From: Escherichia coli
GTDB lineage: Bacteria; Pseudomonadota; Gammaproteobacteria; Enterobacterales; Enterobacteriaceae
DNA length: 64,000 bases
Strand: one strand, 5' to 3'
Assembly: GCF_965641715.1 (NCBI RefSeq)
Contig: NZ_OZ282453.1
Of this stretch, positions 9,203-28,936 are shown piece by piece. The position numbers were made by a program, and so were the translations under genes. The notes under the pieces were generated by a model that was given only the letters and a program-made list of their open reading frames with translations, searched no databases and was not told the origin of the DNA. Numbering within the stretch: the stretch's first letter is position 1; each line of letters opens with the position of its first letter.

Positions 9203-9270
9203 TCAAGTTTTTTAAAATCACCTGTATATCAATCATTTAAAATGAAAAAACAGTCTTTATAAATCATCGA

Positions 9271-9291
9271 GCAATACACAGCGCAATACAC
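9271..9291. repeat. Tandem GCAATACAC motifs, candidate integrase arm-type sites (left arm)
   Basis: gcaatacacagcgcaatacac; near-identical copy at 24095..24115 beside int. Confidence 0.4.
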
Positions 9292-9480
9292 GTATCTGTA
9301 TTGTTTTAATGCTGATACACACCGTTTTTTGATACAGTGATTCGACCTACCATCGCGAAGCATTTTTTATTTCTTGTGTGTAACAATCTGACGAGGTGAG
9401 CACTCAAAGAGATAAGAGGCAGTAGAAATTTCGATCCCCCCCCTGAATGCAATTTTTCGTATATATATATACAAAACAGT

Positions 9481-9632
9481 GCGGGTTATGCGGGTTAGCG
9501 GGTTATCTTCGCGTGCTAAGTATTTTTTACTCTTTAATATCAATACGTTAAAAAACAACGTATCTAAATATCAGCCAGAATGTAACCCGCAAGACATTCA
9601 AAATAACCCGCAAACACCACTCAAATAACCCG
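9481..9632. repeat. Iteron cluster (3 direct GCGGGTTAT + 3 inverted copies around AT-rich spacer)
   Basis: Same 9-mer family as the cluster next to the primase gene. Confidence 0.55.
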
Positions 9633-9714
9633 CAAAAACATCCCTGAAAGTGGGTGCCGATAATACTGAAAATTTATTCCATTAAATGAGCATTGTCCTC
9701 TCTCATCCATTCCG

Positions 9715-11376: not shown

Positions 11377-11716
11377 GCTCGTCCTCTTCCTCTGTTTCCG
11401 GTGGATTTCTGCGGCGACTTACCGGGTCAAAACCCAGCAAAGAAGCCATTTTGATCATTATTCTTTCAGCGTCAGCCTTTGCGCTCAGGGCGGGGTTTCT
11501 GCTCTCGCTGCCCTGACTGTTAACAATGCTGAACCCGCGCGTGGCAAGGTCTTCGACGGCTTTGCGGTATATGGAGTAGTTAACGCAATACAGCTCCAGA
11601 TTGCTCCAGTCGGCGGGGGTAAGGTCTTCCCGTCCGGAAAGCTGGCGCGATTTTTCCTTCCACTGCCTGACCGCGATTTCATCCAGGTAAGCGGGGGCTT
11701 TTGGTGGTCTTGCCAT
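11360..11716 (-). CDS. Terminase small subunit (satellite)
   Basis: Starts MARPPKAPAYLDE..; overlaps terL start; ORF track extends to 11857. Confidence 0.7.
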   Translation of the reverse strand: MARPPKAPAYLDEIAVRQWKEKSRQLSGREDLTPADWSNLELYCVNYSIYRKAVEDLATRGFSIVNSQGSESRNPALSAKADAERIMIKMASLLGFDPVSRRRNPPETEEEDELDRLA

Positions 11717-12004
11717 GTTCTTTTTTCGCCCAATTATTTTCAAAAAAATTCCCGTGCACAAAAATTTGAGGAGGCGGTCGGTGTCCGGCAGGGACGGTTT
11801 TGTCCTGAAAACCTCCCCCCCCCCCTCTGACGGCCTCACCAGCGATTGCGAAAACATTCCATGACCTCGCGGTCACGGTCGGTTAATCGCTTCGCTGTGG
11901 TGCGTTCTGTGCGCCCTGTCCTGTTGGCTTTGTGCCCTGTCTCCTGTGTCTTCCATAAGTCACGCTGCCTTATCAGTCCACGTATCAGCCTGTTTTGCTC
12001 CTGT

Positions 12005-12445
12005 TCAGTCATCATCGCCATACATCCAGTCGTTACGGTGTGCCGCCCGTTCTTCCTGCTCGCGATACATACCCGCCTTACGGTTCGCTTTCGTGGCTGG
12101 ATCTTCCCGTGTTGTCTTACGGTTATGGCACGTCTGGCACAATGCCTGGTGGTTCCACTCAGGCCAGAAGAGAACATCACCGCCGCCATTGATGGGAATG
12201 ATGTGATCCACCACAAGAGCTGGCGTATAAATCCCCTTAGCCAGACAACGCACGCATAACGGATTTTTGCTCAGGTACAGGGCGCGGTATTTGTCCCACT
12301 GTCGGGAATACCCGCGCGCGCGGCGGTGTCCCCGTCTGGCATCCTCTGCACGCCATGCAGCCCGCCTGTGATCTTCGCACTTGCCGGACTTCACGCGCTT
12401 ATTACAGCCCGGCTCAGTGCATCGCCTTAATGGTTGCCACGGCAT
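12005..12445 (-). CDS. HNH endonuclease (packaging-associated)
   Basis: Cys-rich N-terminus and HNH motif (..DHIIPINGGG..H..C..CH). Confidence 0.8.
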   Translation of the reverse strand: MPWQPLRRCTEPGCNKRVKSGKCEDHRRAAWRAEDARRGHRRARGYSRQWDKYRALYLSKNPLCVRCLAKGIYTPALVVDHIIPINGGGDVLFWPEWNHQALCQTCHNRKTTREDPATKANRKAGMYREQEERAAHRNDWMYGDDD

Positions 12446-12744
12446 CAGTACACCCCTACATCACGATAAACCGACCAGAGCGCAGAAATAGCCATAGGCA
12501 GTTCAGACTGCTCCACAGGTGAAACCGCTTCCCTGTTCTCGTACAGGAAAGCGATGTACATCAGGCAACCAACACGTATTGCCGGGGTAAATTCCAGCCC
12601 GTCTTCAAAACGTTTCCCGATATGCTTCTGGCAGGCTTCCAGCGCCGCATCGGTATACATTTTCAGAAGTTCGCCCTCACCTGAGAAGTCATCAAGGCGA
12701 AGATGTGCCCTGACTTCATCAGGTGTAATTTTTTCTTCACTCAT
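12445..12744 (-). CDS. gp6-like head-tail connector (satellite)
   Basis: MSEEKITPDEVRAHLRLDD.. N-terminus; internal ATG, ORF track start 12825. Confidence 0.55.
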   Translation of the reverse strand: MSEEKITPDEVRAHLRLDDFSGEGELLKMYTDAALEACQKHIGKRFEDGLEFTPAIRVGCLMYIAFLYENREAVSPVEQSELPMAISALWSVYRDVGVY

Positions 12745-13951
12745 CTTTTTCACCTTTAATTTCCACCGTCTGCTTCCATGCCTGGCTGAACTCGTCACCA
12801 CCTTCACGCGGCGGCATCCCCTCACGTTCGCGGGCTTCGTTCGGATTCATGATCCCGTTCTTAATCCCTTTCTCATACGTGGCGTAACGCTCGGTTGGAG
12901 TAGCGCGCAGTAAATCGGCTGAATCAAACTCAACCAGATAACGGGTACCAGGTATGGGAGAAGCCACCAGCAAAGCGGCCTTAATTTGCTGTTCGAAGTT
13001 CGCCAGCCATGGGCGCATTGTCATGGTCAGAAACGCGCGGCTTGCCTCACTGAAATTGCTGTAGGTGCTGTTGCTGTATTCCTGAAGAAAAATCGGCGAC
13101 ACGTTGAACATCCGGGCGATGTCTTCAATGGAGAAGCGACGGGAGGCCAGCCATTCTGCATCCTGGTTACTCATCCCCAGTTGCTTGTAATCCATACCCC
13201 CTTCAAGGATTGGCGTTTTTCCGGCATTTTTCGCCCCCTTGTAGCGTTCCAGGGCGTCTAATGCCTGTTTACCTTTCACGCCGTCCAGCCATTCGCCTGA
13301 CGTGATAATCCCTGCCGCCATCATGCCATCTTTCATAATGCTGGCTCCGTGACGCTGTTGAGCAAGGCCAAGCCCCAGCGCCTCACGGCAAATCGTGACA
13401 GGGGAGCGCCCCAGAAAGCCATCATCCGAGGCATAGCGGAGATGCAGAACTTCTTCCTGCAAATACGTGCGCACCGTTCCTGTATAGGGTTCGGTGATGG
13501 TATAGCGGTATTTGTGTGCGCCAGTGCGTTCCGGTACAACACACCCCGGCGCATAAGGATGAAGTGATTTTGGCTGACCGTCCCGCCCCCACTCAATAAC
13601 CGCATAGGCGTTACCGTTCAGCAGGCAGTGACGCATCATTGTGCGTTTAAACTGGTAAGGTGTCTGGCACGAATTAGGCTGCTCATTCAGCAGAATATCG
13701 ACCGGGTGACTGTCCAGCCATTCCCGCGCCTCCCTGCCCTTGTCATTGCGTACCAGATACAGATAACACGGCATCGTGGCCACCGCCTCAGCGATGACAG
13801 AAACCGCGTTCATCACAGCAGGCAATGATTCAGCCGTCCCGGCAGAAACATATTCTCCGGATCCGGTATTCGGTACGCCGGACAGCGCCAGAAAATCATC
13901 AATGGACAGGTTACGCAGATCGCTTTTTTTACGACTAAAAGGCCACCACAT
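12737..13951 (-). CDS. Portal protein (satellite, HK97 family)
   Basis: Portal-like sequence; ATG at 13951 abuts protease stop; ORF track start 14041. Confidence 0.8.
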   Translation of the reverse strand: MWWPFSRKKSDLRNLSIDDFLALSGVPNTGSGEYVSAGTAESLPAVMNAVSVIAEAVATMPCYLYLVRNDKGREAREWLDSHPVDILLNEQPNSCQTPYQFKRTMMRHCLLNGNAYAVIEWGRDGQPKSLHPYAPGCVVPERTGAHKYRYTITEPYTGTVRTYLQEEVLHLRYASDDGFLGRSPVTICREALGLGLAQQRHGASIMKDGMMAAGIITSGEWLDGVKGKQALDALERYKGAKNAGKTPILEGGMDYKQLGMSNQDAEWLASRRFSIEDIARMFNVSPIFLQEYSNSTYSNFSEASRAFLTMTMRPWLANFEQQIKAALLVASPIPGTRYLVEFDSADLLRATPTERYATYEKGIKNGIMNPNEAREREGMPPREGGDEFSQAWKQTVEIKGEKDE

Positions 13952-13952
13952 A

Positions 13953-14513
13953 TCACAACCCCGCCAGTTCAGCCCAGCGATGACGATTATTTCCTGTCGG
14001 GCGTAATTCAGGGTGCTGTGCAAACAACGAACGGTGGGCAATCTCCACGCCGGATTCGGGATAAGCAGGCATCGACGTTATCGTGATTTCACGGAGTTCT
14101 GCGGCGGTAACAGTGCGCAGATACGGTTTTTGCGCGATATTCCACTCTTCGCATAATGCGCGAAAGCCAAAGCTCATTCCTGTAATGTCGCCACGCTCCA
14201 CCAGCGTAAGCACATCTTTTCCAAGCTGGGTATCAGGCGGTGTCAGTTCAAAACGTAGCCCGGTGTTGTCCTCAGTCAGTACCAGTGTTCCGGATTTGGT
14301 GCGCCCCAGCAGTCGGGTATAGTCATGCTCATACAGGCAGCGCACATCATTACCCGCCGCCAGATAGTCAGCAAAAGCCCCCGGCGTGAACTGTTCGCGG
14401 AATTCGTCCCAGATAATTTCTGAAAGGCTGTTCCAGCGAACGGCATACCCCACCAGCTTTTTATTGCTGGCGGTCAGTTCAGATGTGCGGATTTCAAAAT
14501 CGGTGTTTTTCAT
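13953..14513 (-). CDS. Prohead protease (satellite)
   Basis: 186 aa, ..GYAVRWNS.. region matching HK97 protease pattern. Confidence 0.8.
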   Translation of the reverse strand: MKNTDFEIRTSELTASNKKLVGYAVRWNSLSEIIWDEFREQFTPGAFADYLAAGNDVRCLYEHDYTRLLGRTKSGTLVLTEDNTGLRFELTPPDTQLGKDVLTLVERGDITGMSFGFRALCEEWNIAQKPYLRTVTAAELREITITSMPAYPESGVEIAHRSLFAQHPELRPTGNNRHRWAELAGL

Positions 14514-14567
14514 CGGTGTACTCCATAAAGCTGAAAAAGGAGGCCGCAGCCTCCTCCTTACTCATGA

Positions 14568-15737
14568 CTAGCCAGCTTTCATTTCCAGAATTTTGATGGC
14601 GTTTGAATCCACCACACCACCGCCCAGATATTTATCCGTGTGGACCTTGTAGAATCCGGGCTCAGTAATGTTGTCCGGTCGGGTGCGAATCCCTGTTACA
14701 TGATCAACGATGAAATAACCACGACTGAAATCGCCAACCGCTAGCGGTGCTTTTCCTGCGCCGATGTCCGGCATGGACTCCAGGCAGAAAACAGGACGAC
14801 CAAGCAACATATCCGGCGCACCTTCTTTAAGGCTGTCGCGCCAGATATAATCGCCATTCTCATTTTTCAGCTTCTGTAGTGTCCCTGCCGTGCCCGAGTT
14901 CATCACCCAGACGGCATTTTTGCGGTATTTCGCTTTCAGCTTGTAGAGAATGTCGATCAGTTCGTCCGCTGTAATGGCGGTTCCACTTGCCGCTACCACT
15001 TTTTCAATGGTGCCAAAAGCGCGGGTTTTGTCACTGGTCGCCGCACGGGTGTAAGCCATGAAGCCTTTCGGCTTGCCGTTACCGTCGCCATTAACAAAAT
15101 CATCCTCTTCGGTGCTGGCGAACGTGTCGGCAATTTCGGAGGATAACCAGCCCAGAATATCCACCTCTGAAAAATCCAGGATTTCCTGCGTGGTTTTCGG
15201 GTAGGCGTAGATCGGATTCAGCTTGATGGTTACACGTTCAATTTTCGGGGTGTTGGTTTCACTACGTGCGCAGCCTTCTGTGCCTCGTCCTACAGTTGCG
15301 CCGCCAGTGGAAACCAGTTTCTGAAACTCATTTGATTTTGCGGTCTTCACGGTCGCGATCACGCGCATAACACTGTCATCCTGTAGCTGGCGCATGACTT
15401 CGCGATCAAGCTCAGGAATTACGGTATATCCGCCATCCCTGCCGCTGTCAGTGCTGGTGGACAGTGATCGCACATCTCCGGTTACGATGTAGTTACGCAA
15501 TTCATCAGATGATAATTTCTGGATGCCCGTTCCTGGCTTGCTGCGTTCTTCATCAGCCACAGACTCGAGGCGGTAAATTTCTGTGTCGAGGGAATCGGCT
15601 TTTGCACGCAGTTCATCAAACTGTTTGCCCTCGTCATCGTTCAGGCTGCGGTTTTCACTGTCGGCTTTTTCCAGCAGGGATCGCATCTGGTTTTTCAGGG
15701 CGGTTTTTTGCTGGCGGAGTTCGATTAATTTCTTCAT
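14568..15737 (-). CDS. Major capsid protein (satellite, HK97 fold)
   Basis: 389 aa, coiled N-terminal segment, homologous architecture to 5176..6381. Confidence 0.85.
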   Translation of the reverse strand: MKKLIELRQQKTALKNQMRSLLEKADSENRSLNDDEGKQFDELRAKADSLDTEIYRLESVADEERSKPGTGIQKLSSDELRNYIVTGDVRSLSTSTDSGRDGGYTVIPELDREVMRQLQDDSVMRVIATVKTAKSNEFQKLVSTGGATVGRGTEGCARSETNTPKIERVTIKLNPIYAYPKTTQEILDFSEVDILGWLSSEIADTFASTEEDDFVNGDGNGKPKGFMAYTRAATSDKTRAFGTIEKVVAASGTAITADELIDILYKLKAKYRKNAVWVMNSGTAGTLQKLKNENGDYIWRDSLKEGAPDMLLGRPVFCLESMPDIGAGKAPLAVGDFSRGYFIVDHVTGIRTRPDNITEPGFYKVHTDKYLGGGVVDSNAIKILEMKAG

Positions 15738-15974
15738 GAAGGTTTTCTCGTATTGGTTAAGATTCAGGACGTGAAACCAACACGGAGGGAGCGCCGCCCG
15801 ACACTCTCGGCATCTCGCAGATCAACCCGGCATCGCGCAGGGGGTCAGGCGGCATTGTGGCGGCTCACGTCTGAGTGCCACACGCCAACATATACATAAA
15901 AATCAGTATGTAAACATCAGCCAGAATCACCGAACAACCTGGAACAACCACGAACAAATAATTTACAAAACCTG

Positions 15975-16000
15975 AAAAAAAGACCTGGAGAAAATCCAGG
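15975..16000 (-). terminator. Intrinsic terminator upstream of satellite capsid operon
   Basis: Hairpin cctgga/tccagg followed by T-run on minus strand, directly after ORF 16012..16260. Confidence 0.5.
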
Positions 16001-16011
16001 CCTTTATCGCT

Positions 16012-16260
16012 TTATTGTTTCACTGGATCCCGCATTCTGCGTCTTATTTTCCACAGATATTCGATCATCGCTTCCACCTGCTCACGATTGGTTGCGAAAA
16101 TTTCCCCGGTCAGTGAGCTGCGCAGAAAATCATGATGATCCACAACAAACAACGCATCGGAAGAAAGCAGACGGCGATATTTTTTTGCTGTCGTGGTTTC
16201 CAGATCATCAAAACCATGAAACTTTTTATGTTGCTGGACTTCTTCAAATGTCACTGGCAT
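16012..16260 (-). CDS. Hypothetical protein
   Basis: 82 aa ORF, 4-nt overlap with upstream ProQ-like gene. Confidence 0.4.
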   Translation of the reverse strand: MPVTFEEVQQHKKFHGFDDLETTTAKKYRRLLSSDALFVVDHHDFLRSSLTGEIFATNREQVEAMIEYLWKIRRRMRDPVKQ

Positions 16261-16793
16261 GTATCCCCCTTTGCCGCCCGGCGCTGGCGCTTGTGCTTCT
16301 CATTCAGCGCCATCAGCCGCGTTTCTGCCTCCTGCTGTTCCTGTGGTGTCACTTCCCCACATGGCTGGCCTTTCAGGTCGTATCGTACCCCACCAGCAAC
16401 CAGGGCGCGGTAATAGCGCGGAGACTGCGCATAAGATGCCAGCGTCGCACGTAATGCCCCCGGCCCGAATGCCAGCCCCCTGACGGCGAGATCCTGCATC
16501 AGGTCGTCGAATATCCCCACCTTAAGCGGCTTCGGTGCTTCCCTGTTGAATAAGTCAGGCCACATCTCAGTGAGGCGGTTAACGCGCCTGCGGTTTTTGC
16601 GCTGGCGTTTGGTCATATGCCGCCACGGTGTCACCCCTGTGGGCTGCCCTTTGCGGCTCTGCTGTGCGTTCTGATTGCCGGGTATCACTTTATGCGCCGA
16701 TGTGGTTTTATCCCGCTCTTGCGCCGCCTGCGTCGTTTTCTGCGGCGTGCCGTAAATGCCTTTCGGTTTTCGGTTAATGGTCAGCTTTGTCAT
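16251..16793 (-). CDS. ProQ/FinO-domain RNA-binding protein with basic N-terminal extension
   Basis: ..PLKVGIFDDL..RATLASYAQSPRYYRAL..RYDLKGQPCGEV.. parallels ProQ N-terminal domain. Confidence 0.6.
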   Translation of the reverse strand: MTKLTINRKPKGIYGTPQKTTQAAQERDKTTSAHKVIPGNQNAQQSRKGQPTGVTPWRHMTKRQRKNRRRVNRLTEMWPDLFNREAPKPLKVGIFDDLMQDLAVRGLAFGPGALRATLASYAQSPRYYRALVAGGVRYDLKGQPCGEVTPQEQQEAETRLMALNEKHKRQRRAAKGDTCQ

Positions 16794-16957
16794 GCCTTCC
16801 CCTGTAATTACTCTGTTCGCTGTTGTGAATTAAAACGGTATGTTATCCCCGTACAGGTCATCGTGCTGGCCTGTCTGTTGTTTTGCCCTGTTCAGTGCGT
16901 CAGTGGCCTGCCCCTGTTGGCCTTTTTTGCCGCCCGGTCGCGCCGTTCTCGCACTGA

Positions 16958-17254
16958 TTACGCTGTCTGCGATGACCTGCCAGCCCTGCCGCGTTTCGCC
17001 GTTCTGCCCTGTCCACTGCTTACCTGCATGTTACCCGCCACGCTCACCAGTTCGCCTTTGCGGTGTTTTGCCAGTGCGTCGGCCTGTCTGCCAAACGCCA
17101 GGACGGATAACCACATCGTCGCCGTTCCGTCATCTGCCTGGCTGCATGGCAGGGGAACCGCCATACTCGCCATCGCCATTTGTGTTCCCTTGCTGGTGGT
17201 CTTTAACTGCGGGTCAGCCACCAGCCGCCCGTAAGCCGCTATCTGTGCTGTCAT
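16958..17254 (-). CDS. SSB-like OB-fold protein (tentative)
   Basis: 98 aa, ..GRLVADPQLKTT..TATMWLSVLAFGRQA..KGELVSVAG.. resembles short phage SSBs. Confidence 0.35.
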   Translation of the reverse strand: MTAQIAAYGRLVADPQLKTTSKGTQMAMASMAVPLPCSQADDGTATMWLSVLAFGRQADALAKHRKGELVSVAGNMQVSSGQGRTAKRGRAGRSSQTA

Positions 17255-17318
17255 GCTGTCTGCTCTCCGGTTTTAACGTTGATGGTTACGCTTGTTTACA
17301 CCCTTACGGTGAAATTCT

Positions 17319-17441
17319 GCGGGTTATAATCGCACTTTTGCGGGTTATAACTGCCGTTTTGCGGGTTACGTGCGGGTTATTGATTTCCTTTTTATTCATA
17401 CAGTTAATGCACTTATATACATGATAACCCGCATAACCCGC
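17319..17441. repeat. Iteron cluster, candidate satellite origin (4 direct GCGGGTTAT + 2 inverted, AT-rich centre)
   Basis: Immediately downstream of primase/helicase gene. Confidence 0.6.
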
Positions 17442-17464
17442 AACTTTTCACCTCACACAGGGGG

Positions 17465-19588
17465 TTAATCTTCTGCCTCAGGCTGGAACATCAGCACGTA
17501 AAAAACATGCTGCTTCCCCCCAATTTTGCCGAGCGCCTTTTTCTTGTAACGGCGATCGTTACCCGCTTCCAGCATTCCGGCAGCACTCAACGCGCGGGCA
17601 AAGTGAGACGGATTAAATCCCTGTGCTATCTCACCCTCAAATACATGCGGGAACGTGTAAAAACGGAACTCGTCATCTTCGTTTCTGATACTCCCCTTTC
17701 TGTATCCGGCAAGTTCTTTAATCGATAAATCACGCTCGTCGGTATTGGGCCACGGAAGGTATCTGCTGAATCCGAACGACGCTAAAAAAGCTTCTGCCTG
17801 TTCAACCATCTGTTTAAATTCCCTGTTACCCGTGCCGAACTCCTTCACCCAGGCATTAAAATTATGCTGTATGGCATCGCGGCATTCCTGCTCATCCCAG
17901 CCAGTAACATGACCTGAAAGCACAAGCGCGGCCTCCAGTATGGCAAATCGCTCCCCCACACGGTGAACCTGTTCGCCGTAGCTCTCCGGTATCAGGTTGC
18001 GCCACCGCTCACGGCATGTCCTTACCGTGTCCTTTGCCTCCTGCTGGTGTTCTGCCAGCCATTTAACCCACTCACGACCCGCCGCCCCGTGATTTTCTGT
18101 CCAGGCATCCTTTAACGCGTCTGCGTGCGCCTTTCCGGTGCTGTATTCGTGAAATTGCGTGGCTTTTTCCATCGGAACGTTAAGCAGGCGGACAAGCTGC
18201 CCCGCTTTGACTTTTATCCCCTCCGTTTTGAGGAATGTCTCAACGTCCATTTCTCCGGTGCTGATTGCCACCGTGCGCCAGTGTTTGATCTCCCTGTTGC
18301 CGCCGTCCTTCGCCCCCTGTAATTTCCCCGAACCGTTAAACAGCGTATAGGCTGACGTGGACACCTCCCGCGCGTTTCCGGCCTGGCCTATTTCATCCAG
18401 GGGTAAAAGCCCGTCATTGTGTGCCTCTGCTTCGTTGGCGATACCTAACGCTGTGCCGTACCAGGTCAGCCGCTGCGCGTCCGGCTCTCCCCATAAACTT
18501 GATGCGATGTTCTGTGTGGTGGTTTTCCCTGCCGATGACTGTTCGAAAAGATGTACCCCGAAGCCGTCAGCGCCCACCAGCCCGATTAATGGTGCGGATA
18601 ACGATACCGCCACACCCAGCATCATGGACGGATTACCACCAGCCAGCCGCGCAACGGTATCGCGCCAGCCCTCCGCCGTTCCTGCCACGGAATAGCCATT
18701 AACAGCAGCCGTTTTTCCGGTAAACAGGACTGGCTTTTCGCAATCACCAATGACCGAACCGTCCGGCATGATGTACGCGCCAAAATGCCAGCCCGTTGTT
18801 GTGCTTAACTGCCATTCCTCATGGCTTCCGCTTAACTGCATCCAGTCAGCCAGGATAGCCCTGTATTTACCGTTGGTTGTTACGTTCAGTCCGTGGTCTT
18901 TCAGCAACCGCCAGCCGTCACGGTCGCCAATGCCACCGCACGGAACCGCCATTGTGATGACTTCATGGTTTGCTAATTTTTTCCAGCGCATCACGCGGTA
19001 ATGCTCTTTACCGATTGTCCCCGTTCCCAGTAGTTCAAGCGGGGAACATAACCACGTCTCAGGCCGGATAATTTCGCCTGACTGCTTATCCACTTTTGGC
19101 GTTACCCAGAAAACACCATCGGCGCGACTTTCAACGCGGGGCTTTAATTCATCATCGCCCTGGATTTCTGTGATTTTTTTCTTTAAGGGCAACACCAGAC
19201 TTTCCCCGCGCTCGTATTCGTCTTTGAGGCGAGGCAACTGGTCGGATAAATCCGCCGGGCTGATGTCAGTTATCCCCGCGTATTCGTATACGGTCTTCAC
19301 GCCAGCCACAGCCAGCAACGTGACGATCTGTGTAAGGCTACGTTCAGTGATGTGCCCTGCGCGGTAAACACGCACACACTGACGGCTATCATCAATAATT
19401 TGATAACCGGTAATATCTTTCAGGTGTTCATCTGACAGAACGACAGGCGGCACATTGTCGGCGGCAATATGCTTACCTGCCCATTCCTGCCACTCTTTCG
19501 CATGGCTCCACGCATCACTACCCGCAAAGATGATAACCTCCGTCATTTTGTCGGCTGGCTGGTGCTTTAAGTTTGGTGCGCGCTTCAT
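17465..19588 (-). CDS. Primase/helicase-type replication protein
   Basis: 707 aa with Walker A (SSAGKTT), P4-alpha/PICI pri-rep-like position next to iterons. Confidence 0.65.
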   Translation of the reverse strand: MKRAPNLKHQPADKMTEVIIFAGSDAWSHAKEWQEWAGKHIAADNVPPVVLSDEHLKDITGYQIIDDSRQCVRVYRAGHITERSLTQIVTLLAVAGVKTVYEYAGITDISPADLSDQLPRLKDEYERGESLVLPLKKKITEIQGDDELKPRVESRADGVFWVTPKVDKQSGEIIRPETWLCSPLELLGTGTIGKEHYRVMRWKKLANHEVITMAVPCGGIGDRDGWRLLKDHGLNVTTNGKYRAILADWMQLSGSHEEWQLSTTTGWHFGAYIMPDGSVIGDCEKPVLFTGKTAAVNGYSVAGTAEGWRDTVARLAGGNPSMMLGVAVSLSAPLIGLVGADGFGVHLFEQSSAGKTTTQNIASSLWGEPDAQRLTWYGTALGIANEAEAHNDGLLPLDEIGQAGNAREVSTSAYTLFNGSGKLQGAKDGGNREIKHWRTVAISTGEMDVETFLKTEGIKVKAGQLVRLLNVPMEKATQFHEYSTGKAHADALKDAWTENHGAAGREWVKWLAEHQQEAKDTVRTCRERWRNLIPESYGEQVHRVGERFAILEAALVLSGHVTGWDEQECRDAIQHNFNAWVKEFGTGNREFKQMVEQAEAFLASFGFSRYLPWPNTDERDLSIKELAGYRKGSIRNEDDEFRFYTFPHVFEGEIAQGFNPSHFARALSAAGMLEAGNDRRYKKKALGKIGGKQHVFYVLMFQPEAED

Positions 19589-19899
19589 TTTGCCTTTCCC
19601 CGTTCACGAATAATTTCACGTACTGCCTTAATGCGTTCCATTCCTGTAACGCGCATGATTCTGTCGATGTCGCTTAATTCTGCTGGTGGTGCTTTACTTA
19701 CCAAGGTGAACTCCCTGTCAAAGCGCATATGTGACGACACGCAGGGATGCGCATAACCTTCGCGGATATAGGTCACACGAAAATCATCGACGGTTTTGAT
19801 CGTTATCGTGCTGCCGTATTTATCCTGGAAAATATCGCCGGGGCGGATTTCAGGCCGAGCGGGGCCGCTGGCAGTAAAGCCAGAATTTTTCTTTTTCAT
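19585..19899 (-). CDS. Hypothetical protein
   Basis: 104 aa, 4-nt overlap with primase gene. Confidence 0.4.
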   Translation of the reverse strand: MKKKNSGFTASGPARPEIRPGDIFQDKYGSTITIKTVDDFRVTYIREGYAHPCVSSHMRFDREFTLVSKAPPAELSDIDRIMRVTGMERIKAVREIIRERGKAK

Positions 19900-19904
19900 G
19901 TTTT

Positions 19905-20153
19905 TTACTCCAGAGGCAGCTTTTTAGCGGCGAGCTCAATATCAGATGTCAGAGAAACCTGTGTATTTGCCAGGTCTAACAACAAAGAAATAAGAATTTC
20001 TTCTCTGCTATCGGATTTATCGGTGCTAAGGCTGTTCATCCACATATTGACGACTTCCCTGATTTTTTTCGCAGAGTGCAGGGCTTCAAATGCCAGGTCT
20101 TCAATATCATGTTTATTTCGCATAATCGCCCCCGCCATTTTCACAATCAGCAA
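19905..20153 (-). CDS. Hypothetical protein
   Basis: 82 aa ORF in early leftward operon. Confidence 0.3.
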   Translation of the reverse strand: MLIVKMAGAIMRNKHDIEDLAFEALHSAKKIREVVNMWMNSLSTDKSDSREEILISLLLDLANTQVSLTSDIELAAKKLPLE

Positions 20154-20358
20154 TCAGGATGGCTTTTGCCTCATTCAGCGCCATATCAGCACTAAATTGC
20201 ATAACAGCCAGTGAGTGAGGAACGAAAGCCCCGGCATATTCTGTTTCGCTGGTGGCGTGCTTATGCGCCTTGTCTGCGATAACAGAAATATCAATCAGCG
20301 CGTGCATCAGCGTTTTGATGGCTTCGGCGGCTGCGTCCGGACGGGTGTTATTGCACAT
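20113..20358 (-). CDS. Hypothetical protein
   Basis: 81 aa ORF, first gene of leftward operon. Confidence 0.3.
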   Translation of the reverse strand: MCNNTRPDAAAEAIKTLMHALIDISVIADKAHKHATSETEYAGAFVPHSLAVMQFSADMALNEAKAILIADCENGGGDYAK

Positions 20359-20651
20359 GGCGCACCTCCTGACGAATACGGGCAGCGAATACCATCACGC
20401 AGCCAGCCGGGGATTGCTGGCGTGCTTCCTGTTCGCTAGTGGCCTCAATGGTAATCACACGCGGTTGTGCCGTGCTCAGGGCGATAAAACGCCAGATGTA
20501 TTTATTCAGGTTGTGCGAGTCCCGCCCTTGCGGGTGTGTGGTATGATTTAACATAGCTACCTCGATAATCTTGCTATCGTTGGTGGTTAGAAGCCCGGTT
20601 AGTGTTAGCGCACTGCCGGGTTTCGTCGTTTGTATTTCAATAAAACCATTG

Positions 20652-20729
20652 GTGTGTTTCATGTTATTTTGGAGTGAAACACACGTCAAGCCTTTTTTGT
20701 ATTTCTTTTTTGTGTATACTGAAACACAC
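20652..20729. promoter_or_regulatory. Divergent promoter/operator region with three TGAAACACAC half-sites
   Basis: Perfect 10-bp inverted repeat GTGTGTTTCA..TGAAACACAC plus third copy overlapping a TATACT -10. Confidence 0.45.
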
Positions 20730-20750
20730 CAAATTTGAGGAGTTTCAGTT

Positions 20751-21056
20751 ATGGCGACTACCAACAAAAACGCTAAATCACAATTGACCACCGTCAGAGT
20801 CCCCCACGATGTTATGGAGGGCATGGAATCCGTAAAACTGGACGGCGAAAGCAACGCCGGATTCATAGTAACCGCCATGCGCGGTGAGATCGCCCGCCGC
20901 CAGGCAGAAGGAAGCGGAGAAAATCCCCTGGTTTCTTCGCTCGATGCACTGGCGCAGGTGGAAAAAATTGGAGTCAAGGCTGCCGAGGAGATCGGGCAAC
21001 TCGTCACCGTCGCGCGTGAAGAACTCCAGCGACGCAAGGTCAAAGAGCAGGAATAG
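20751..21056 (+). CDS. Ribbon-helix-helix-like regulator (tentative)
   Basis: GAGGAG RBS; N-terminal TTVRVPHDVMEGMESV..AGFIVTAMRGEI pattern. Confidence 0.45.
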   Translation: MATTNKNAKSQLTTVRVPHDVMEGMESVKLDGESNAGFIVTAMRGEIARRQAEGSGENPLVSSLDALAQVEKIGVKAAEEIGQLVTVAREELQRRKVKEQE

Positions 21057-21113
21057 CCACTATCAGCGCCATAGTTTGAGGAACGCAGGCGCATTGCTTT
21101 ACAGGACAGCACC

Positions 21114-21293
21114 ATGAGCGACACAGAATCAACCAAAACACCATCACCAACTCGTAAGAGACGACGCAAAAATATAGCGCATGAACATGAATCAGAAAGA
21201 TTCGCACCTTGTTCGTTTGCTCTTGAGAAATTCCTTAAAGAGCACAGGAAAAAGCTCTCGTTGCAAACCTTGGAACGAACCAAATCTGACTGA
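21114..21293 (+). CDS. Small basic protein (59 aa)
   Basis: ORF below track cutoff, followed by two intrinsic terminators. Confidence 0.25.
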   Translation: MSDTESTKTPSPTRKRRRKNIAHEHESERFAPCSFALEKFLKEHRKKLSLQTLERTKSD

Positions 21294-21359
21294 TCACATT
21301 GCCCACCAGCCGCAAATGTGGCATTGTTGGTGATGCTTTTGTTTTCCCTTGTTCCCACT

Positions 21360-21388
21360 GGCGACCCTTTTGCGGTCGCCTTTGTTTT
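21360..21388 (+). terminator. Intrinsic terminator
   Basis: ggcgaccc tttt gcggtcgcc followed by T-rich run. Confidence 0.45.
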
Positions 21389-21483
21389 GCCTGTTATCCG
21401 GCAATAGTGGCGCTTCGTCACCTGTCTGATATAATTCCACAGCTTATATTCATTTTTTGCGCAGTAGGTTAATTGTTCGCAAG

Positions 21484-21515
21484 GGCGCTCCGGCAACGGG
21501 GCGCTTTTTGTTTTT
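21484..21515 (+). terminator. Intrinsic terminator with GCAA tetraloop
   Basis: gcgctccg GCAA cggggcgc then tttttgttttt. Confidence 0.4.
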
Positions 21516-21673
21516 ACCCACCAGCACAATAAAAATCTTCATTTTCCATTTTTGTAAAATTTCATGCTTTCCGGACGACTGGTCATATGTCATTTTTTAG
21601 CAGAAGATTTTGCCTTGCTGGTGGGTAGCTTCCCGGTCAACACGATGTACCGTATAATCAACACCGCGTGTGG

Positions 21674-22252
21674 TTACTGAATACGCTCACCAAAGTAAAA
21701 CTCAGGCTGGTATTCACGTATCAGCCTTTTTTCTTCTTCCTCCAGCTCACGCTTTTTGCGCTTACATGCCTGTAGCTCCCTCCCCTTCTCACTGGCACTT
21801 ATCTGGTATTGCTCTTTGCGGCGGGAAAAATCCTGTAATGCGCCCCACGGGATACCATAAGCCCCCGTTTTTCTGATACCCGGTATCACATTTCTGAATA
21901 CCCAGTTACTGAAACGATGAGCAAATGTGCCAGGCGTCGTTGCTTTGCGGCTGCGGGCTATTAGTTTGTAGAAACCTGACTCGGAGATAATGCTCATATT
22001 CTGATTTCCTCCGGGGGTGTAAGTTAAATTTACTCCCTTTTCGTCATCATCAAGCATCTGCAACGCCGTACGCGAATTGGTCAATTCCAGCGCAGCACAA
22101 ACATCCTTTGCAACAAACCACGGATCGCCGTTTAGATACACCACACGAACATCCACGCCATCAAAGCGCAGAACGACCAGATCACGAATATCACAGAATT
22201 TTTTCACATGACGTGCGTCACCCTTGCCCGTCACGGCAATATTTTTATTCAT
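21674..22252 (-). CDS. Bro-N domain protein (antirepressor-like)
   Basis: ..FDGVDVRVVYLNGDPWFVAKDVCAALE.. matches Bro-N consensus. Confidence 0.7.
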   Translation of the reverse strand: MNKNIAVTGKGDARHVKKFCDIRDLVVLRFDGVDVRVVYLNGDPWFVAKDVCAALELTNSRTALQMLDDDEKGVNLTYTPGGNQNMSIISESGFYKLIARSRKATTPGTFAHRFSNWVFRNVIPGIRKTGAYGIPWGALQDFSRRKEQYQISASEKGRELQACKRKKRELEEEEKRLIREYQPEFYFGERIQ

Positions 22253-22309
22253 TGCTTTTTACCTCACATACAAAAAACCCCGCATTGCGTGGTGCGGGGT
22301 TGTCGGTAA

Positions 22310-22588
22310 TTACTTATTGGCGTTTTTGTATGGGCTGTTTACTTCCTTTACTCCTGGCGGATGCATAACCCACCAGAGCACATCAGAGAGCAACCAGGAA
22401 ACAGACACTTTCCCTAAATGAGCACGAGCAGGAAATGCTCCCTCCTGTTCAAGTACCCAACGTCTGCTTCTTGAAAGCCCGGTACGATTGGCACACTCAT
22501 GTTCGCGTATACGGCGATCATACGGTTCGCCATGATCTTTCAGAATCTGAATGCGTTCTTCGGGTGTAGGATAAATAAATTTTTGCAT
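22310..22588 (-). CDS. AlpA-family regulator / excisionase-like
   Basis: HECANRTGLSRSRRWVLEQEGAFP..VSWLLSDVLWWV; internal ATG, ORF track start 22618 is TTG. Confidence 0.6.
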   Translation of the reverse strand: MQKFIYPTPEERIQILKDHGEPYDRRIREHECANRTGLSRSRRWVLEQEGAFPARAHLGKVSVSWLLSDVLWWVMHPPGVKEVNSPYKNANK

Positions 22589-22651
22589 AAAAATATCACC
22601 TATAAAAAAACCCGCCAAAAGACGGGTTGATTATATCTCATTTAATTTAGC

Positions 22652-22873
22652 TCAGGGTTTCCATTCACCTTTTACCCATTCCAGCACCTCAGATAAGCGC
22701 CAGACTTTTGTTTGTGGGCCAATACATATTTTTCGTGGAAATTTTCCTTCCTTTTCAAGTAACGATCTGTGTCTCCTGCCAAGAGCGGTTAACCATGCAC
22801 ATTCATCCTCCTTAATCATCCTGTCGATTGTTTCATCATTTTCAAGTTCTTCACGCGTAACTATTTGAATCAT
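22652..22873 (-). CDS. AlpA-family regulator / excisionase-like
   Basis: DECAWLTALGRRHRSLLEKEGKFP..VWRLSEVLEWV; start uncertain (22885, 22873 or 22819). Confidence 0.6.
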   Translation of the reverse strand: MIQIVTREELENDETIDRMIKEDECAWLTALGRRHRSLLEKEGKFPRKICIGPQTKVWRLSEVLEWVKGEWKP

Positions 22874-24074
22874 TACTGTCACCACTAATTTGCTTATTCA
22901 GATAGTCGTACCACCAGTTCATAGCTTCTTTTTTTCTGTCCATATACTGGCTTCTGTTATAAACCCCGGCAACACCGCCTAATGTGTGCCCAAGCAACTG
23001 TTCAACCACATTATGTTCAAAACCATGATCACTTAGTTTTGTGGCAAACACTCTTCGCATATCATGCGCCGTCCATTTCTCCGAGTGTTTCATCCTTTTC
23101 CATGTCTTACCGATAGTTACGCTTGCCGTACACTGACGCATATCAAACCCAATCACATTTTCTTTGTTACCTGTTATTTTTTTTAACGTAACTAACCAGT
23201 TAAACATGCCATCAGGAATCGGTCTGATTATTTCCCTGCCATTTTTGCTATGATCAGCGGGAACGCGCCATAATTTCTTATCAAAATCCCACTCTACCCA
23301 GGACGACAGTAATACTTCTGACAGTCGACAACCAAAAACTACCAGGAAACGTAAAATAATTCGGTTTTCATATGATAATTCGTGATTGTCATAATCAGTA
23401 TTAATACTTCGCCATAAATCTCTGATTTCATCATCTGTTAAAACCCTGCTTCTTCGCGCAGACTTTTTTCCCACATCACAGACCTCAAGATCATCAATTT
23501 CATGACTAATCGCGTATTTTCTTACCCTACAAAATTTAAGCGCCTGTTTTGATATACGCAACAAAGCTCCGGCCTGTACAGGTGCTACTTTTTTTATTTT
23601 GTCAAAACACTTAATCCACATAGATATAGAGCAATCACTAAGTGGTACATGACCAATCACCGGATAAATATGTTTACCAAAGCACTGCCTGATATGTTCT
23701 GCTCCCCTACGCTTATCCATTGCATAATTATCAAGCCAGTATTCAAGTGCCTCACGAACGGTAACAGGTTGCAAGGTGGCTTCCCGTTCAATTTTTATCT
23801 GAATCCGTGGATCTCTGCCCTCCGCAAGCCAGGTTCGACACTGATCGCGCATCTCTCTCGCTGATTTGAGACTCAGATCAGGATATTTTCCAAGTGTCAG
23901 CCAGATGGGCGCGGTTCCCCTTCCCGCCAGTCTGTAAAAGAAAACAAAACTAACACATCCGTATTTACTGACCCGTACCGAAAGCCCGTTACCATCAGCG
24001 ATGGTTTCCTGCCTCTCACTCCTGCGCCCAAGCAGGGAACGAAGTTTTTTATCGCTCAGTTTGTTTAGCGCCAT
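22851..24074 (-). CDS. Tyrosine integrase, P4 type (satellite)
   Basis: MALNKLSDKKLRSL.. N-terminus, C-terminal HxxR..Y catalytic region; ORF track start 24110. Confidence 0.85.
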   Translation of the reverse strand: MALNKLSDKKLRSLLGRRSERQETIADGNGLSVRVSKYGCVSFVFFYRLAGRGTAPIWLTLGKYPDLSLKSAREMRDQCRTWLAEGRDPRIQIKIEREATLQPVTVREALEYWLDNYAMDKRRGAEHIRQCFGKHIYPVIGHVPLSDCSISMWIKCFDKIKKVAPVQAGALLRISKQALKFCRVRKYAISHEIDDLEVCDVGKKSARRSRVLTDDEIRDLWRSINTDYDNHELSYENRIILRFLVVFGCRLSEVLLSSWVEWDFDKKLWRVPADHSKNGREIIRPIPDGMFNWLVTLKKITGNKENVIGFDMRQCTASVTIGKTWKRMKHSEKWTAHDMRRVFATKLSDHGFEHNVVEQLLGHTLGGVAGVYNRSQYMDRKKEAMNWWYDYLNKQISGDSNDSNSYA

Positions 24075-24094
24075 GTGATTTATAACCCGTTTTT

Positions 24095-24115
24095 GCAATA
24101 CACAGTGCAATACAC
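24095..24115. repeat. Tandem GCAATACAC motifs, candidate integrase arm-type sites (right arm)
   Basis: gcaatacacagtgcaatacac just upstream of int; copy at 9271..9291. Confidence 0.4.
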
Positions 24116-24245
24116 AAATGATGAAAACAGCCAGAACCTTCCAGAAAAAACAAAAACGACGAACAAGAAAAAATCTTTTTCTTTCATTTGGTTACTAAAA
24201 AAATCAGGACAGGTCGCACTGTTGTTACGGCGTGATGTTACTTTC

Positions 24246-24259
24246 TTTGTGAAAAAATT
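24246..24259. repeat. Satellite junction core, right copy (tttgtgaaaaaatt)
   Basis: First 7 bp identical to 9189..9195; encodes ..FTK of the terL N-terminal fragment. Confidence 0.55.
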
Positions 24260-25273
24260 CACCCGCGCCGAGACCTGCTCCTTCGCCTTTTTCGCCAGAC
24301 GACGCAGATCATCCCAGCGTTTACAGATGCCCAGGCCGGGATTCGCTTTCTGCCAGACCGTTTCATCAAACGGATCATCTCCCTCATCGAGCGTGTAAAT
24401 GATCGCAAAGTAAGAGTCGTCTTTTACCGCGCCCTCCACGTCACTGTTATAGCCACGCAATACCTTAATGGCGTAATCACGCTGCTCGTAACAAATCCCT
24501 TCCTTGTTAAACCCTGCCGTGGTGATACCAAATAAAAGGGACTGCAGACGGGCACCGGTTGCCGTTTCCAGAACGTCCCACACGTCACGGGTTTTATGTG
24601 CATGCAGCTCATCAATAATGGCGCAGTGGATGTTCAGACCGTCCAGGTTGTTTGCATCCGAGGAAAGCGGTTCAAATTTTGATGCGCTCTGCTCCTGGTA
24701 GATCGCCAGCTTGTTGAAATCAAATAACCGCCCGAGTGTCGACCGGGCTTTTCTGACCATATTTTTGGCGTCTTCAAACACGATTCTGGCCTGGTCACGC
24801 GTGGTTGCGGCTGAATACACCTCAGCTCCACCTTCACCATCTGCCCCCGTCATATACAGGCCGATACCCGATGACAGAGTTGATTTTGCGTTTTTACGGG
24901 CGACTTCGTTGTACGCCGTCCGGAACCGGCGCACCATCACCGGACGTCCGCTGCCATCGCTGCGCATGACAACTTCCCCGGTCTCTTCATTCACCAGCGG
25001 AATGACAAAACCAAAAATATTAATGAGGATAAATACATGCCAGTCCATCAACTCAATGGGCTGGCCTGCCAGCGCCCCTTTTACATGAGGCACAAATTTG
25101 TAGAAATTCAGGATGTGCTGCGCACGGGGTTCACTGAAATAAATCCCCCGCTCTTCGCCGTACTTCAGATCATCAAGAAAACGCTGGCAGGCCAGACGGA
25201 CAAATTCCCCAGCAACAATTTCTCCTGCAACAACACGTTCGGCGTAGCGGATCCCGTCAGCCACTTTTGCCAT
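24253..25273 (-). pseudogene. Terminase large subunit, N-terminal ATPase fragment (gene split by satellite)
   Basis: ORF 24080..25273: first ~340 aa align to TerL N-terminus (VARKNAKST, AIIDELH), then 54 unrelated residues read into the satellite. Confidence 0.8.
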
Positions 25274-28935: not shown

Positions 28936-28936
28936 T

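Follow-up and report, generated by a model that had tools for sequence, protein, structure and literature searches.

A candidate RHH repressor, a five-site operator-like array and a predicted antisense RNA in the divergent control region of a helper-embedded Escherichia coli satellite

Between the leftward operon of a phage satellite in E. coli and a short rightward operon lies a cluster of repeats, and the question raised by this locus is which of the neighbouring proteins acts on them, and whether it is here that the satellite senses its helper. The initial annotation had proposed a helper-sensing switch at this place, and considered the roles of the proteins unreadable from sequence. Analysis of the window (the whole stretch of DNA analysed, 64 kb) supports this interpretation only in part, since the operator-binding protein can be assigned through co-variation of the repeats with a few of its residues.

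The satellite is a capsid-forming PICI (cf-PICI) inside the terL gene of a helper prophage, i.e., a helper-embedded PICI:

9203..24244, minus strand: the whole satellite; flanked by the N-part of helper TerL, which runs up to 24245, and by its C-part from 9202 onwards

At 15,042 bp it falls within the 10–18 kb of the class, and it carries int, alpA and a primase gene together with its own capsid and packaging set; its terL, terS, HNH, portal, protease, capsid, primase, alpA and int genes are all on the minus strand. The cf-PICI packaging set comprises capsid, protease, portal, connector, HNH, terS and terL, with tail and lysis genes absent, and no tail or lysis gene is found between 9203 and 24244; the assignment is based on the ORFs of the window and on the annotation of the near-identical element in TUM1881. 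The helper terL is split around the satellite (N-part from 25273 to 24245, C-part from 9202 to 8462), with helper terS, HNH, endolysin and holin genes upstream of the N-part on the same strand, and the co-oriented late operon leads directly into int and alpA of the satellite. In TUM1881 terL is split identically, both halves being annotated as pseudogenes by RefSeq, and the predicted excision junction ...VNFFTK|HMNVW... would bring terL back into frame. PICIs inside prophage late genes, with transcription driven by the helper, have been described (PMC10111431), and insertion into a prophage terminase gene is common to the present satellite and known helper-embedded PICIs. The gene order int, alpA, variable Bro zone, replication, capsid and packaging is likewise shared by the cf-PICI EcCIEDL933, by EcCICFT073 and by helper-embedded PICIs (10.1101/2022.09.08.507074; PMC6092414; PMC10111431). 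In contrast to these elements, the window satellite has two tandem alpA genes with a terminator after each.

The divergent region contains the following features:

20348..20554, minus strand: Icd-like gene (NF033153), 68 aa, first of the leftward operon
20630..20639, minus strand: S1, weak operator-like site TGAAATACAA (on the minus strand), overlapping the U-tail of the antisense RNA described below
20652..20661, minus strand: S2, strong candidate operator TGAAACACAC, covering the predicted start site of P_L and the final base of its -10
20661..20689, minus strand: P_L, promoter of the icd-replication-packaging operon, TTGACG (20689-20684), 17-nt spacer, TAACAT (20666-20661)
20675..20684, plus strand: S3, strong candidate operator, in the P_L spacer and abutting the -35
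20697..20706, minus strand: S4, weak operator-like site AGAAATACAA (on the minus strand), in the P_R spacer
20715..20720, plus strand: -10 element TATACT of P_R, promoter of the RHH-orf59 operon, in the conserved TGTATAnT
20720..20729, plus strand: S5, strong candidate operator, placed on the 3' border of the P_R -10 and over the predicted P_R start site
20751..21056, plus strand: RHH (Arc-like) protein of the YlcI/YnfO family (NCBIfam NF041551), 101 aa, candidate master repressor

The leftward operon starts at 20554 with the Icd-like gene (69.8 bits against a cutoff of 25), and not at 20358 as initially annotated; this gene overlaps the next ORF by 11 nt, and a RefSeq homologue carries the same annotation. 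The initially noted 10-bp inverted repeat and third half-site at TATACT are borne out by three exact copies of TGAAACACAC at 20652-20661 (minus), 20675-20684 (plus) and 20720-20729 (plus), the last having one base in common with TATACT, and the 64 kb hold no further exact copy. These three, however, are not the full set, since S1 and S4 had been missed: the degenerate motif GAAA[CT]ACA[CA] has five matches in the window, every one inside the 100 bp of 20630-20729. The outer two TGAAACACAC copies lengthen into a perfect 13-nt inverted repeat TTGGTGTGTTTCA/TGAAACACACCAA, and together S1–S5 form an array of 9–10 bp sites in alternating orientation whose centres are 22–23 bp apart. Such non-palindromic sites at this spacing are unusual for RHH operators. 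P_L scores 9/12 in a promoter scan and the same element occurs in the related locus L005, while the corresponding promoter of EcCICFT073 is called as TTGACG-18-TATAGT (10/12). At P_R a good -35 is absent and the scan made no call, and TGTATAnT is kept in 14 distinct type-A regions and also in other types.

On the far side of the RHH gene the order of the genes and of the two plus-strand terminators is that given initially, except that the RHH gene is not the sole plus-strand gene, because the 59-aa ORF lies on that strand as well:

21114..21293, plus strand: orf59, small basic protein (phrog_21027), 59 aa, predicted to be co-transcribed with the RHH gene
21360-21380 and 21481-21508, plus strand: two predicted intrinsic terminators ending rightward transcription
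21674..22252, minus strand: Bro-N domain protein, 192 aa (Pfam PF02498; phrog_2593, 'anti-repressor')
22276..22301, minus strand: predicted intrinsic terminator between alpA_a and bro
22310..22588, minus strand: AlpA paralogue a, 92 aa (PF05930, E 5.6e-10)
22609..22628, minus strand: predicted intrinsic terminator separating alpA_b from alpA_a, with TATAAT (22635..22630) ahead of it
22652..22873, minus strand: AlpA paralogue b, 73 aa (PF05930, E 1.7e-9), its start overlapping the end of int
22851..24074, minus strand: tyrosine integrase int, 407 aa (Pfam Phage_integrase and Arm-DNA-bind_3), of the same length as a RefSeq homologue

The Bro-N match reaches 71.9 bits (gathering threshold 25.6, E 7e-20), and the AlpA paralogues, 46% identical over 57 aa, score 39.4 and 37.9 bits (threshold 21). 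Read on the minus strand, the hairpins at 21360-21380 and 21481-21508 have no T-run; the 21481 hairpin is present in EcCICFT073 too. The minus-strand terminators after each alpA gene, like the antisense RNA, were absent from the initial annotation. The one before bro lies directly 5' of the bro SD and ATG and has an analogue with a different stem between alpA and bro in L005; no minus-strand terminator was found beyond bro.

The protein encoded at 20751..21056 matches NF041551, an N-terminal domain of 42 residues, with 69.3 bits (cutoff 30, E 2.1e-19, residues 9-50), and shows the order expected of the RHH fold (Arc/MetJ/CopG), an N-terminal β-strand followed by two helices. The putative recognition strand is at about residues 11-17, and residues 59-100 form a single long helix. 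A phmmer search of the PDB with the protein returned no match, and the Foldseek match to Arc has an E of 8. Hypervariability in the YlcI/YnfO family is concentrated in the strand residues, which co-vary with the operator sequence. In roughly 90 related loci the operators keep their positions and change their sequences in concert, at approximately -120, -98, -76, -53 and -31 from the RHH ATG in the type representatives (some types show fewer than five), and within each locus all sites switch jointly. The S1 position at -120 is found again in types A and C, type F having a site with two mismatches at -129 instead, and the S4 position carries a matching sequence of its own in each specificity type. 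Operator TGAAACACAC is paired with the RHH strand KSQLTTVRVP, CTTACAC with KSQSLTARIP, GATATACA with KSQMTTIRVP and, in EcCICFT073, GTGGCCCAC with KSQALKARVP; TUM1881 has an operator of its own with the strand RSQMKNIRFP. Outside the strand the RHH proteins of different types are 90–99% identical. Operator type tracks only this strand, and not AlpA, Bro-N, orf59, Icd, DUF4222 or the primase; in TUM1881, both AlpA proteins, Bro-N and orf59 are 100% identical to those of the window, whereas the operator and the RHH N-terminus differ. Because the operator co-varies only with its N-terminal strand, the RHH protein is likely to bind these sites and to repress the divergent promoters P_L and P_R. 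The operators adjoin the first 25 RHH codons, and a co-inherited recombination block could imitate such co-variation. This objection still stands, however, it is weakened by the cross-genus footprint: the type-A pairing is kept in Xenorhabdus, Photorhabdus and Serratia, with diverged spacers but with an unchanged -35, -10 and set of site cores, including that of S1. The P_L -35 is kept across types as well.

Other readings of the repeats fit these observations less well. That the RHH protein and orf59 form a type II toxin-antitoxin pair, the RHH antitoxin regulating itself with an incidental effect on the divergent operon, is improbable: orf59, a conserved protein family with length differences in whole codons, finds no match among the toxin families of Pfam, NCBIfam and PADLOC, and its AF2 model (of low confidence) consists of a disordered basic tail and helices. 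The two genes are separated by 57 nt instead of overlapping, no orf59 is detectable beside the RHH gene in some loci (part of them truncated), and in every type examined two strong sites bracket the P_L -10 and spacer, which would be superfluous for autoregulation alone. Experiments have established AlpA as the regulator of E. coli PICIs (PMC6092414), and Bro-N domains bind DNA and bear the PHROGs label of anti-repressor, so that either might bind the repeats with the RHH protein as a bystander; yet the repeats of TUM1881 are entirely different beside an identical AlpA pair and Bro-N, type-A repeats occur alongside AlpA proteins of only 38–60% identity and in loci without a detected Bro-N gene, and the array is found in EcCICFT073, for which no Bro-N gene is annotated, which leaves this a very unlikely explanation. 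The number and ~22-bp phasing of the repeats, and their place at the head of a replication operon, also recall origin iterons bound by the primase or initiator. We regard this as scarcely credible, given that the primases accompanying type-A repeats span from at least 90% to below 40% identity, that the sites alternate in orientation and map precisely onto two promoters, and that the E. coli PICI origin was mapped downstream of pri-rep (PMC6092414).

A second element of the region is a small RNA predicted on the strand opposite to the start of the leftward operon:

20542..20547, plus strand: predicted promoter -10 of the antisense RNA, TATGAT preceded by TGg, inside codons 3-5 of the icd-like gene
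20555..20636, plus strand: predicted cis-antisense RNA of ~80 nt with two hairpins and a U-rich tail, antisense to the SD and 5' UTR of the icd-like transcript

All of 28 variants retain the T, A and final T of the -10 hexamer, a conservation that may reflect the protein because the hexamer sits in coding sequence. The Rfam SymR model (RF01809) matches 20555-20636 on the plus strand with 33.6 bits (E 6.6e-4) and the same place and strand in four other loci with 32–38.7 bits, all of these scores being below the gathering threshold of 61 bits, a resemblance that falls short of family membership. In the terminator, non-U bases interrupt the tail. Alternatively, the hairpins may act in the leader of the leftward mRNA, in processing, in stability or as a same-strand immunity RNA of the P4/P1 type, with no separate antisense RNA. 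The immunity RNAs CI of P4 and c4 of P1 are indeed cut from the strand of the operon that they control, perfect hairpins can fold on either strand, and C4/isrK-type RNAs are reported in some PICIs (PMC10111431); the C4 and isrK models of Rfam, however, gave no match across 20300-22900 even at E ≤ 5. Strand polarity also speaks against this alternative, which we consider unlikely. The plus strand folds at -35.4 kcal/mol (z -5.67) compared with -20.4 for the minus strand, and is the more stable in 31/31 variants (mean -34.8 vs -21.8 kcal/mol). Pairing holds in 95.7% of the alignment cells and 5 pairs are compensatory; 23 G.U cells on the plus strand, equivalent to A.C mismatches on the minus strand, stand against zero of the reverse kind. 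The U-rich tail is 3' of the hairpin on the plus strand only, the strand matched by SymR in all five loci.

Taken together, we favour, with a probability of roughly 60% judged from the sequence comparisons, a maintenance switch in which an RHH repressor acts on S1–S5, an antisense RNA adds a lock and the input comes through the helper and AlpA. The anatomy of the region, its conservation, the co-variation and the structural signal of the RNA are observed, and the mechanism built on them is inferred. Weak expression from P_R would supply the 101-aa RHH protein, which would bind the phased array. Occupancy of S3 and S2, which bracket the P_L spacer, -10 and start site, would turn off the leftward operon with its icd-like gene, small genes, DUF4222, primase, capsid and packaging genes, and S4 and S5, in mirrored placement on P_R, would provide autoregulation. 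As a second lock, the ~80-nt RNA, predicted to start at about 20555 inside the icd-like gene and to end at about 20636, would base-pair with the SD and 5' UTR of icd and block translation of the first cistron; with overlapping downstream ORFs, the block might also lower expression of the rest of the operon.

In Gram-negative PICIs the global repressor was called unclear, and AlpA, whose gene is induced by the helper phage, is an activator (PMC6092414); for satellites in prophage late genes the input is read-through from the helper late operon (PMC10111431). The claim that the intergenic switch itself senses the helper is not supported as it was put, the published inputs being alpA or late read-through (PMC6092414; PMC10111431), and sensing via int/alpA is more likely than via the operators S1–S5. 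Following this literature, helper late transcription through terS and the N-part of terL would continue into int, alpA_b, alpA_a and bro, with AlpA activated in trans as an alternative or added input, and the terminators after each alpA gene would gate the amount of transcription arriving at bro. Transcription past bro would converge on orf59 and the RHH gene and enter the icd operon, overriding the repressor. Any repressor must be bypassable, because over-expression of AlpA alone induces EcCICFT073 and EcCIEDL933 (PMC6092414; 10.1101/2025.02.11.637232). The RHH and antisense-RNA layer looks like a maintenance or immunity layer downstream of the helper input.

Parallels to parts of this arrangement exist in several systems. 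The immI region of P22 contains the RHH repressors Arc and Mnt, the sar antisense RNA and ant, and resembles the proposed satellite switch in its small RHH repressors, which act on promoters that are divergent or overlapping and lie close together, in a short antisense RNA across the ribosome-binding region of the operon's first gene, and in an antirepressor-type gene nearby. The satellite differs in having a single RHH protein extended by a long C-terminal helix, five non-palindromic sites at 22–23 bp where P22 has one or two palindromic operators, and a replication and packaging operon under control. The Omega repressor of pSM19035 is an RHH protein that binds arrays of non-palindromic heptads in either orientation; here, too, an RHH dimer would meet a short non-palindromic unit in direct and inverted copies across promoters, although Omega heptads are contiguous and the satellite sites are two helical turns apart. 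The c4 RNA-icd-ant immI of P1/P7 and the CI RNA immunity of P4 resemble the satellite in the Icd-family first cistron, the small RNA gating a leader or RBS and the dependence of downstream genes. However, c4 and CI are cut out of the same strand and act at repeated target sites, whereas the satellite RNA is predicted to be truly cis-antisense. With SymR/SymE (RF01809) it shares two hairpins in ~77–80 nt, a promoter inside the target gene and a 5' end at the target start codon, but its target is Icd-like and, judged by eye, without similarity to SymE. The Stl-Str module of SaPIs and Gram-positive PICIs likewise places a repressor divergent from the replication and packaging operon with operators between them, but Stl proteins are larger HTH repressors lifted by a helper protein, in contrast to a 101-aa RHH candidate with AlpA activation in parallel (PMC6092414).

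In the comparison with PICI modules proposed at the outset, the classical, experimentally studied EcCICFT073 carries the same divergent YlcI/YnfO and Icd-like pair with an operator set of its own. Neither the RHH gene and its operators nor the antisense RNA is described in the PICI literature consulted (10.1101/2022.09.08.507074; PMC6092414; PMC10111431), and the candidate repressor and predicted RNA could together form the repressor layer that has been 'missing' from satellites of the E. coli type. More tentatively, and at somewhat less than even odds, Gram-negative PICIs, whether classical, capsid-forming or helper-embedded, may own an Arc-like RHH master repressor with hetero-immune classes, five-site arrays and a SymR-like RNA locking an Icd-led operon. 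If so, AlpA activation would be an override of the RHH/RNA lock and only part of PICI control, and the chromosomal SymR RNA may descend from such a satellite switch.

The repeats in the control region of the satellite, a capsid-forming phage-inducible island (PICI) embedded in its helper, are candidate operators of the divergently encoded 101-aa RHH protein. Exactly three copies of TGAAACACAC are present in the 64 kb, at 20652-61 (-), 20675-84 (+) and 20720-29 (+); the two outer copies lengthen to a perfect 13-nt inverted repeat, and one base of the third copy also belongs to the -10 element TATACT, in agreement with the inverted repeat and the -10 overlap described in the initial annotation. 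The relaxed motif GAAA[CT]ACA[CA] has five occurrences in the same 64 kb, which are exactly the sites S1-S5, spaced 22-23 bp between centers.

Features of the control region
20348..20554, minus strand: icd-like gene, first cistron of the leftward operon
20542-47: TATGAT, -10-like element of the predicted antisense RNA
20630-39: S1, weaker site, GAAATACAA
20652-61: S2, covers the edge of the P_L -10 and the start site
20675-84: S3, fills the P_L spacer beside the -35
20689-84, 20666-61: P_L, leftward promoter from the promoter scan, TTGACG and TAACAT separated by 17 nt
20697-706: S4, weaker site, GAAATACAA; place on P_R matching that of S3 on P_L
20715-20720: TATACT, -10 of the rightward promoter P_R, whose -35 is poor
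20720-29: S5, place on P_R matching that of S2 on P_L
20751..21056, plus strand: RHH gene
21114..21293, plus strand: orf59
21360-80 and 21481-508, plus strand: intrinsic terminators
21674..22252: bro
22310..22588: alpA_a
22652..22873: alpA_b

Most of the gene assignments proposed earlier hold: the RHH-like ORF belongs to a real family (YlcI/YnfO), the 59-aa ORF matches phrog_21027, the bro product carries the Bro-N domain, the tandem AlpA paralogs are both Phage_AlpA with a mutual identity of 46%, and both intrinsic terminators are found. Two points are revised. The leftward operon is led by a 68-aa Icd-like gene (NF033153) and starts at 20554, not at 20358; RefSeq applies the same label to the homologue in the near-identical element of E. 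coli TUM1881. The RHH gene is not the sole plus-strand gene either, since orf59, downstream of it, is a second one.

The satellite forms a single element of 15,042 bp (9203-24244, minus strand), transcribed in the order int, alpA_b, alpA_a and bro, then the convergent orf59-RHH pair, followed by icd-like, small ORFs, DUF4222 and a DUF927 primase, and finally by SSB/PerC-type genes, capsid, protease, portal, connector, HNH, terS and terL. It is inserted in the terL of a lambdoid helper prophage, which is split into flanks at 8462-9202 and 24245-25273, with a short core of about TCACAAA common to both junctions. The helper holin, endolysin, HNH, terS and the N-part of terL lie upstream on the same strand, and the C-part of terL and the portal lie downstream; TerL, HNH and portal of the satellite share only 30-40% identity with their helper counterparts. 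This context is known biology, since it fits published capsid-forming PICIs (10.1101/2022.09.08.507074) and helper-embedded PICIs with insertion sites in prophage late genes, a terminase site among them (PMC10111431). Repeats of the form GTGTATTGC(A/G)CTGTGTATTGC near both satellite ends (~9270-9300 and ~24095-24125) are possibly integrase arm sites. The helper-prophage part also contains a sok antitoxin RNA (31927-32101, -), a DicF RNA (38647-38698, +) and two tRNA genes (28862-29012, -).

To compare the module across relatives of the RHH protein, 80 viral-contig and 11 genome loci were gathered, together with TUM1881 and the experimentally studied E. coli island EcCICFT073. The divergent layout is identical in every locus examined in detail. 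The repeats keep their positions in these loci, but their sequences sort into discrete types, and the copies within any one locus switch together.

Operators and N-terminal RHH strands by type
Type A and the window: operator TGAAACACAC; strand KSQLTTVRVP
Type B: operators GTGTAAGTAAC / GGCTTACAT / GTCTTACAC; strand KSQSLTARIP
Type C: GATATACA-type operator; strand KSQMTTIRVP
TUM1881: own operator set; strand RSQMKNIRFP
EcCICFT073: operators GGTGTGGCCCAC (two copies) and GTCCCCCACC; strand KSQALKARVP

In a 39-sequence alignment, RHH positions 11-17 form a variable block within an otherwise conserved protein, and residues 30-101 are 90-99% identical between types. Which operator type a locus has does not depend on AlpA, Bro-N, orf59, Icd, DUF4222 or primase. 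The sharpest case is TUM1881, whose operator and RHH N-terminus differ from those of the window although its two AlpA proteins, its Bro-N and its orf59 show 100% identity. Among 14 distinct type-A regions, the cores and the -35 and -10 elements are kept while the spacers drift, and the type-A pairing of operator and strand recurs in Xenorhabdus, Photorhabdus and Serratia. Linkage alone could yield part of this co-variation, because the operators adjoin the first RHH codons; functional pairing is nevertheless the better reading of the sequences, given the cross-genus footprint and the confinement of variation to the recognition strand. Evidence for an Arc-like RHH fold is modest but consistent: a sequence search of the PDB gave no meaningful match, the AF2 model (pLDDT 81.5) has an extended N-terminus followed by helices 19-28 and 35-55 and a long helix 59-100, and its top Foldseek match is Arc, although not at a significant level. 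A search of the phage genome collection with the control region returned essentially no homologue.

When each type was searched with its own motif, the five sites were located at about -120, -98, -76, -53 and -31 from the RHH ATG, with only four present in some types. The P_L element was also found by the promoter scan in L005, a related locus, and its counterpart in EcCICFT073 is TTGACG-18-TATAGT. The site geometry is that which a P_L repressor with autoregulation of P_R would need, and it may be conjectured that the long C-terminal RHH helix bridges dimers sitting two turns apart. EcCICFT073 (locus L094; E. coli CFT073, NC_004431.1, 1377930-1388654) has the same divergent YlcI/YnfO-orf58 / Icd-like module with operators of its own; the RHH protein there is short (59 aa) and lacks residues ~50-92 and the long C-terminal helix. 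Among 5,426 complete E. coli genomes, at least 494 (~9%) carry the long-form gene. An imperfect hairpin in the RHH leader at 20718-20749 (ACTGAAACACACCAAA / TTTGAGGAGTTTCAGT) was dropped as a candidate element, being present in type-A loci and not evident in other types; this repeat could pair S5 with the region around the RHH-gene SD in the mRNA leader.

A second layer of control is suggested by the segment between the operators and the icd-like gene. A permissive Rfam scan matched SymR on the plus strand at 20555-20627 (33.6 bits, E 6.6e-4; gathering score 61), and the model matches the same place and strand in four related loci (L082, L083, L042 and L085). At gathering thresholds Rfam returned nothing in the control region, nor did its C4/isrK models match there, and by score the predicted RNA is not a member of the SymR family. 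The predicted plus-strand fold consists of two hairpins (-35.4 kcal/mol, z -5.67), compared with -20.4 (z -2.72) for the minus strand, and the plus strand is the more stable one in 31/31 distinct variants (mean -34.8 vs -21.8 kcal/mol). In the 31-sequence alignment, 95.7% of cells are paired, compared with 36-46% when partners are slid, a count that excludes the inner stem of hairpin 1, whose MAFFT register differs among types and which was assessed by per-sequence folds instead. Compensatory changes occur at five pairs, with a covariation score that no shuffle reached. The terminator-like helix contains 23 G.U cells on the plus strand and no A.C cells and is thus selected on that strand; a U-rich tail follows the hairpin on the plus strand only. 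The TATGAT element is preceded by TGg and would place the start at ~20554-55; the T, the A and the last T of this hexamer do not vary, but they are situated within codons. Almost the entire icd 5' UTR, SD included, would be covered by complementarity to this RNA, with the anti-SD in the apical loop of hairpin 1 in several variants, from which we infer a cis-antisense translational lock on the icd-like first cistron. Similar logic is known from sar of P22 immI, c4-icd of P1 and SymR-SymE. One viral contig, L022, has two antisense-RNA and operator modules (2976-3089 and 3762-3875) ~790 bp apart with differing operator types, which could be a tandem or nested switch pair.

Other assignments of these elements fare less well. 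Were the RHH protein and orf59 a toxin-antitoxin pair, autoregulation would leave the strong P_L sites unexplained, and orf59 matches no toxin family in Pfam, NCBIfam or PADLOC, which makes such a pair improbable. The co-variation tables contradict both AlpA or Bro-N as the binder of the repeats and a role of the repeats as iterons. Reading the hairpins as a same-strand leader RNA is disfavored by the strand asymmetry of the fold and by the G.U cells.

As for the input to the switch, a minus-strand intrinsic terminator lies after each alpA gene (22628..22609 and 22301..22276), with the SD and ATG of the next gene at most ~25 nt further on. This arrangement appears selected, since L005, with a very different AlpA, also has an alpA-bro terminator with a different stem. 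The two terminators between bro and the RHH operon work for rightward transcription only, as they have no T-run on the minus strand; they lie in a 380-bp non-coding stretch (21294-21673) that measures only ~97 bp in L005 and whose TUM1881 counterpart has an annotated hypothetical minus-strand gene. A perfect TATAAT (22630-22635, -) immediately precedes the terminator upstream of alpA_a; no -35 was found for it, and the homologues are nearly identical in this stretch. The layout is reminiscent of Q-type or Pseudomonas AlpA antitermination units. Published work shows that alpA is turned on by the helper phage, that AlpA activates its own expression and that its over-expression by itself induces the island (PMC6092414); helper late transcription contributes in cis in embedded PICIs (PMC10111431), and an AlpA from Pseudomonas acts as a processive antiterminator (PMC7969949, PMC9371919). 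On the basis of these findings we propose that terminator-resistant leftward transcription would reach bro, cross orf59 and the RHH gene convergently and enter the icd operon, so bypassing the RHH lock and titrating the antisense lock. Bro-N possibly acts against the RHH protein as an antirepressor. Because it is absent from the EcCICFT073 annotation, it cannot be essential to the core switch. Small proteins gave no defence-system match in PADLOC, and the structure model of orf59 was of insufficient quality for a fold search. Two related loci have an above-threshold match to the int-alpA RNA motif (RF02996) in the stretch from int to alpA (L083, 6826-6894; L042, 6655-6722), and isrN is found in a third (L089, 1907-2049); the window has no such match, because its alpA_b and the end of int overlap.

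Neither the element class nor AlpA, the Bro zone or the embedded configuration is new. Within the incomplete coverage of our literature search, no description was found of a PICI control switch with an operator-binding RHH repressor of several specificity types, with the five-site array or with the antisense RNA, and nothing relevant was found on PICIs with ribbon-helix-helix or YlcI/YnfO proteins, Icd-like proteins in satellites or int-alpA RNA. The difference between Gram-negative and Gram-positive PICIs has been termed a mystery, and the repressor question was explicitly left open (PMC6092414). A conserved repressor-operator-antisense module, present in the tractable EcCICFT073, would supply the missing repressor layer. 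Should this hold, satellites able to share a cell would fall into defined immunity groups, and the engineering of PICI-based delivery vehicles would gain precise handles (five sites, seven strand residues and one -10).
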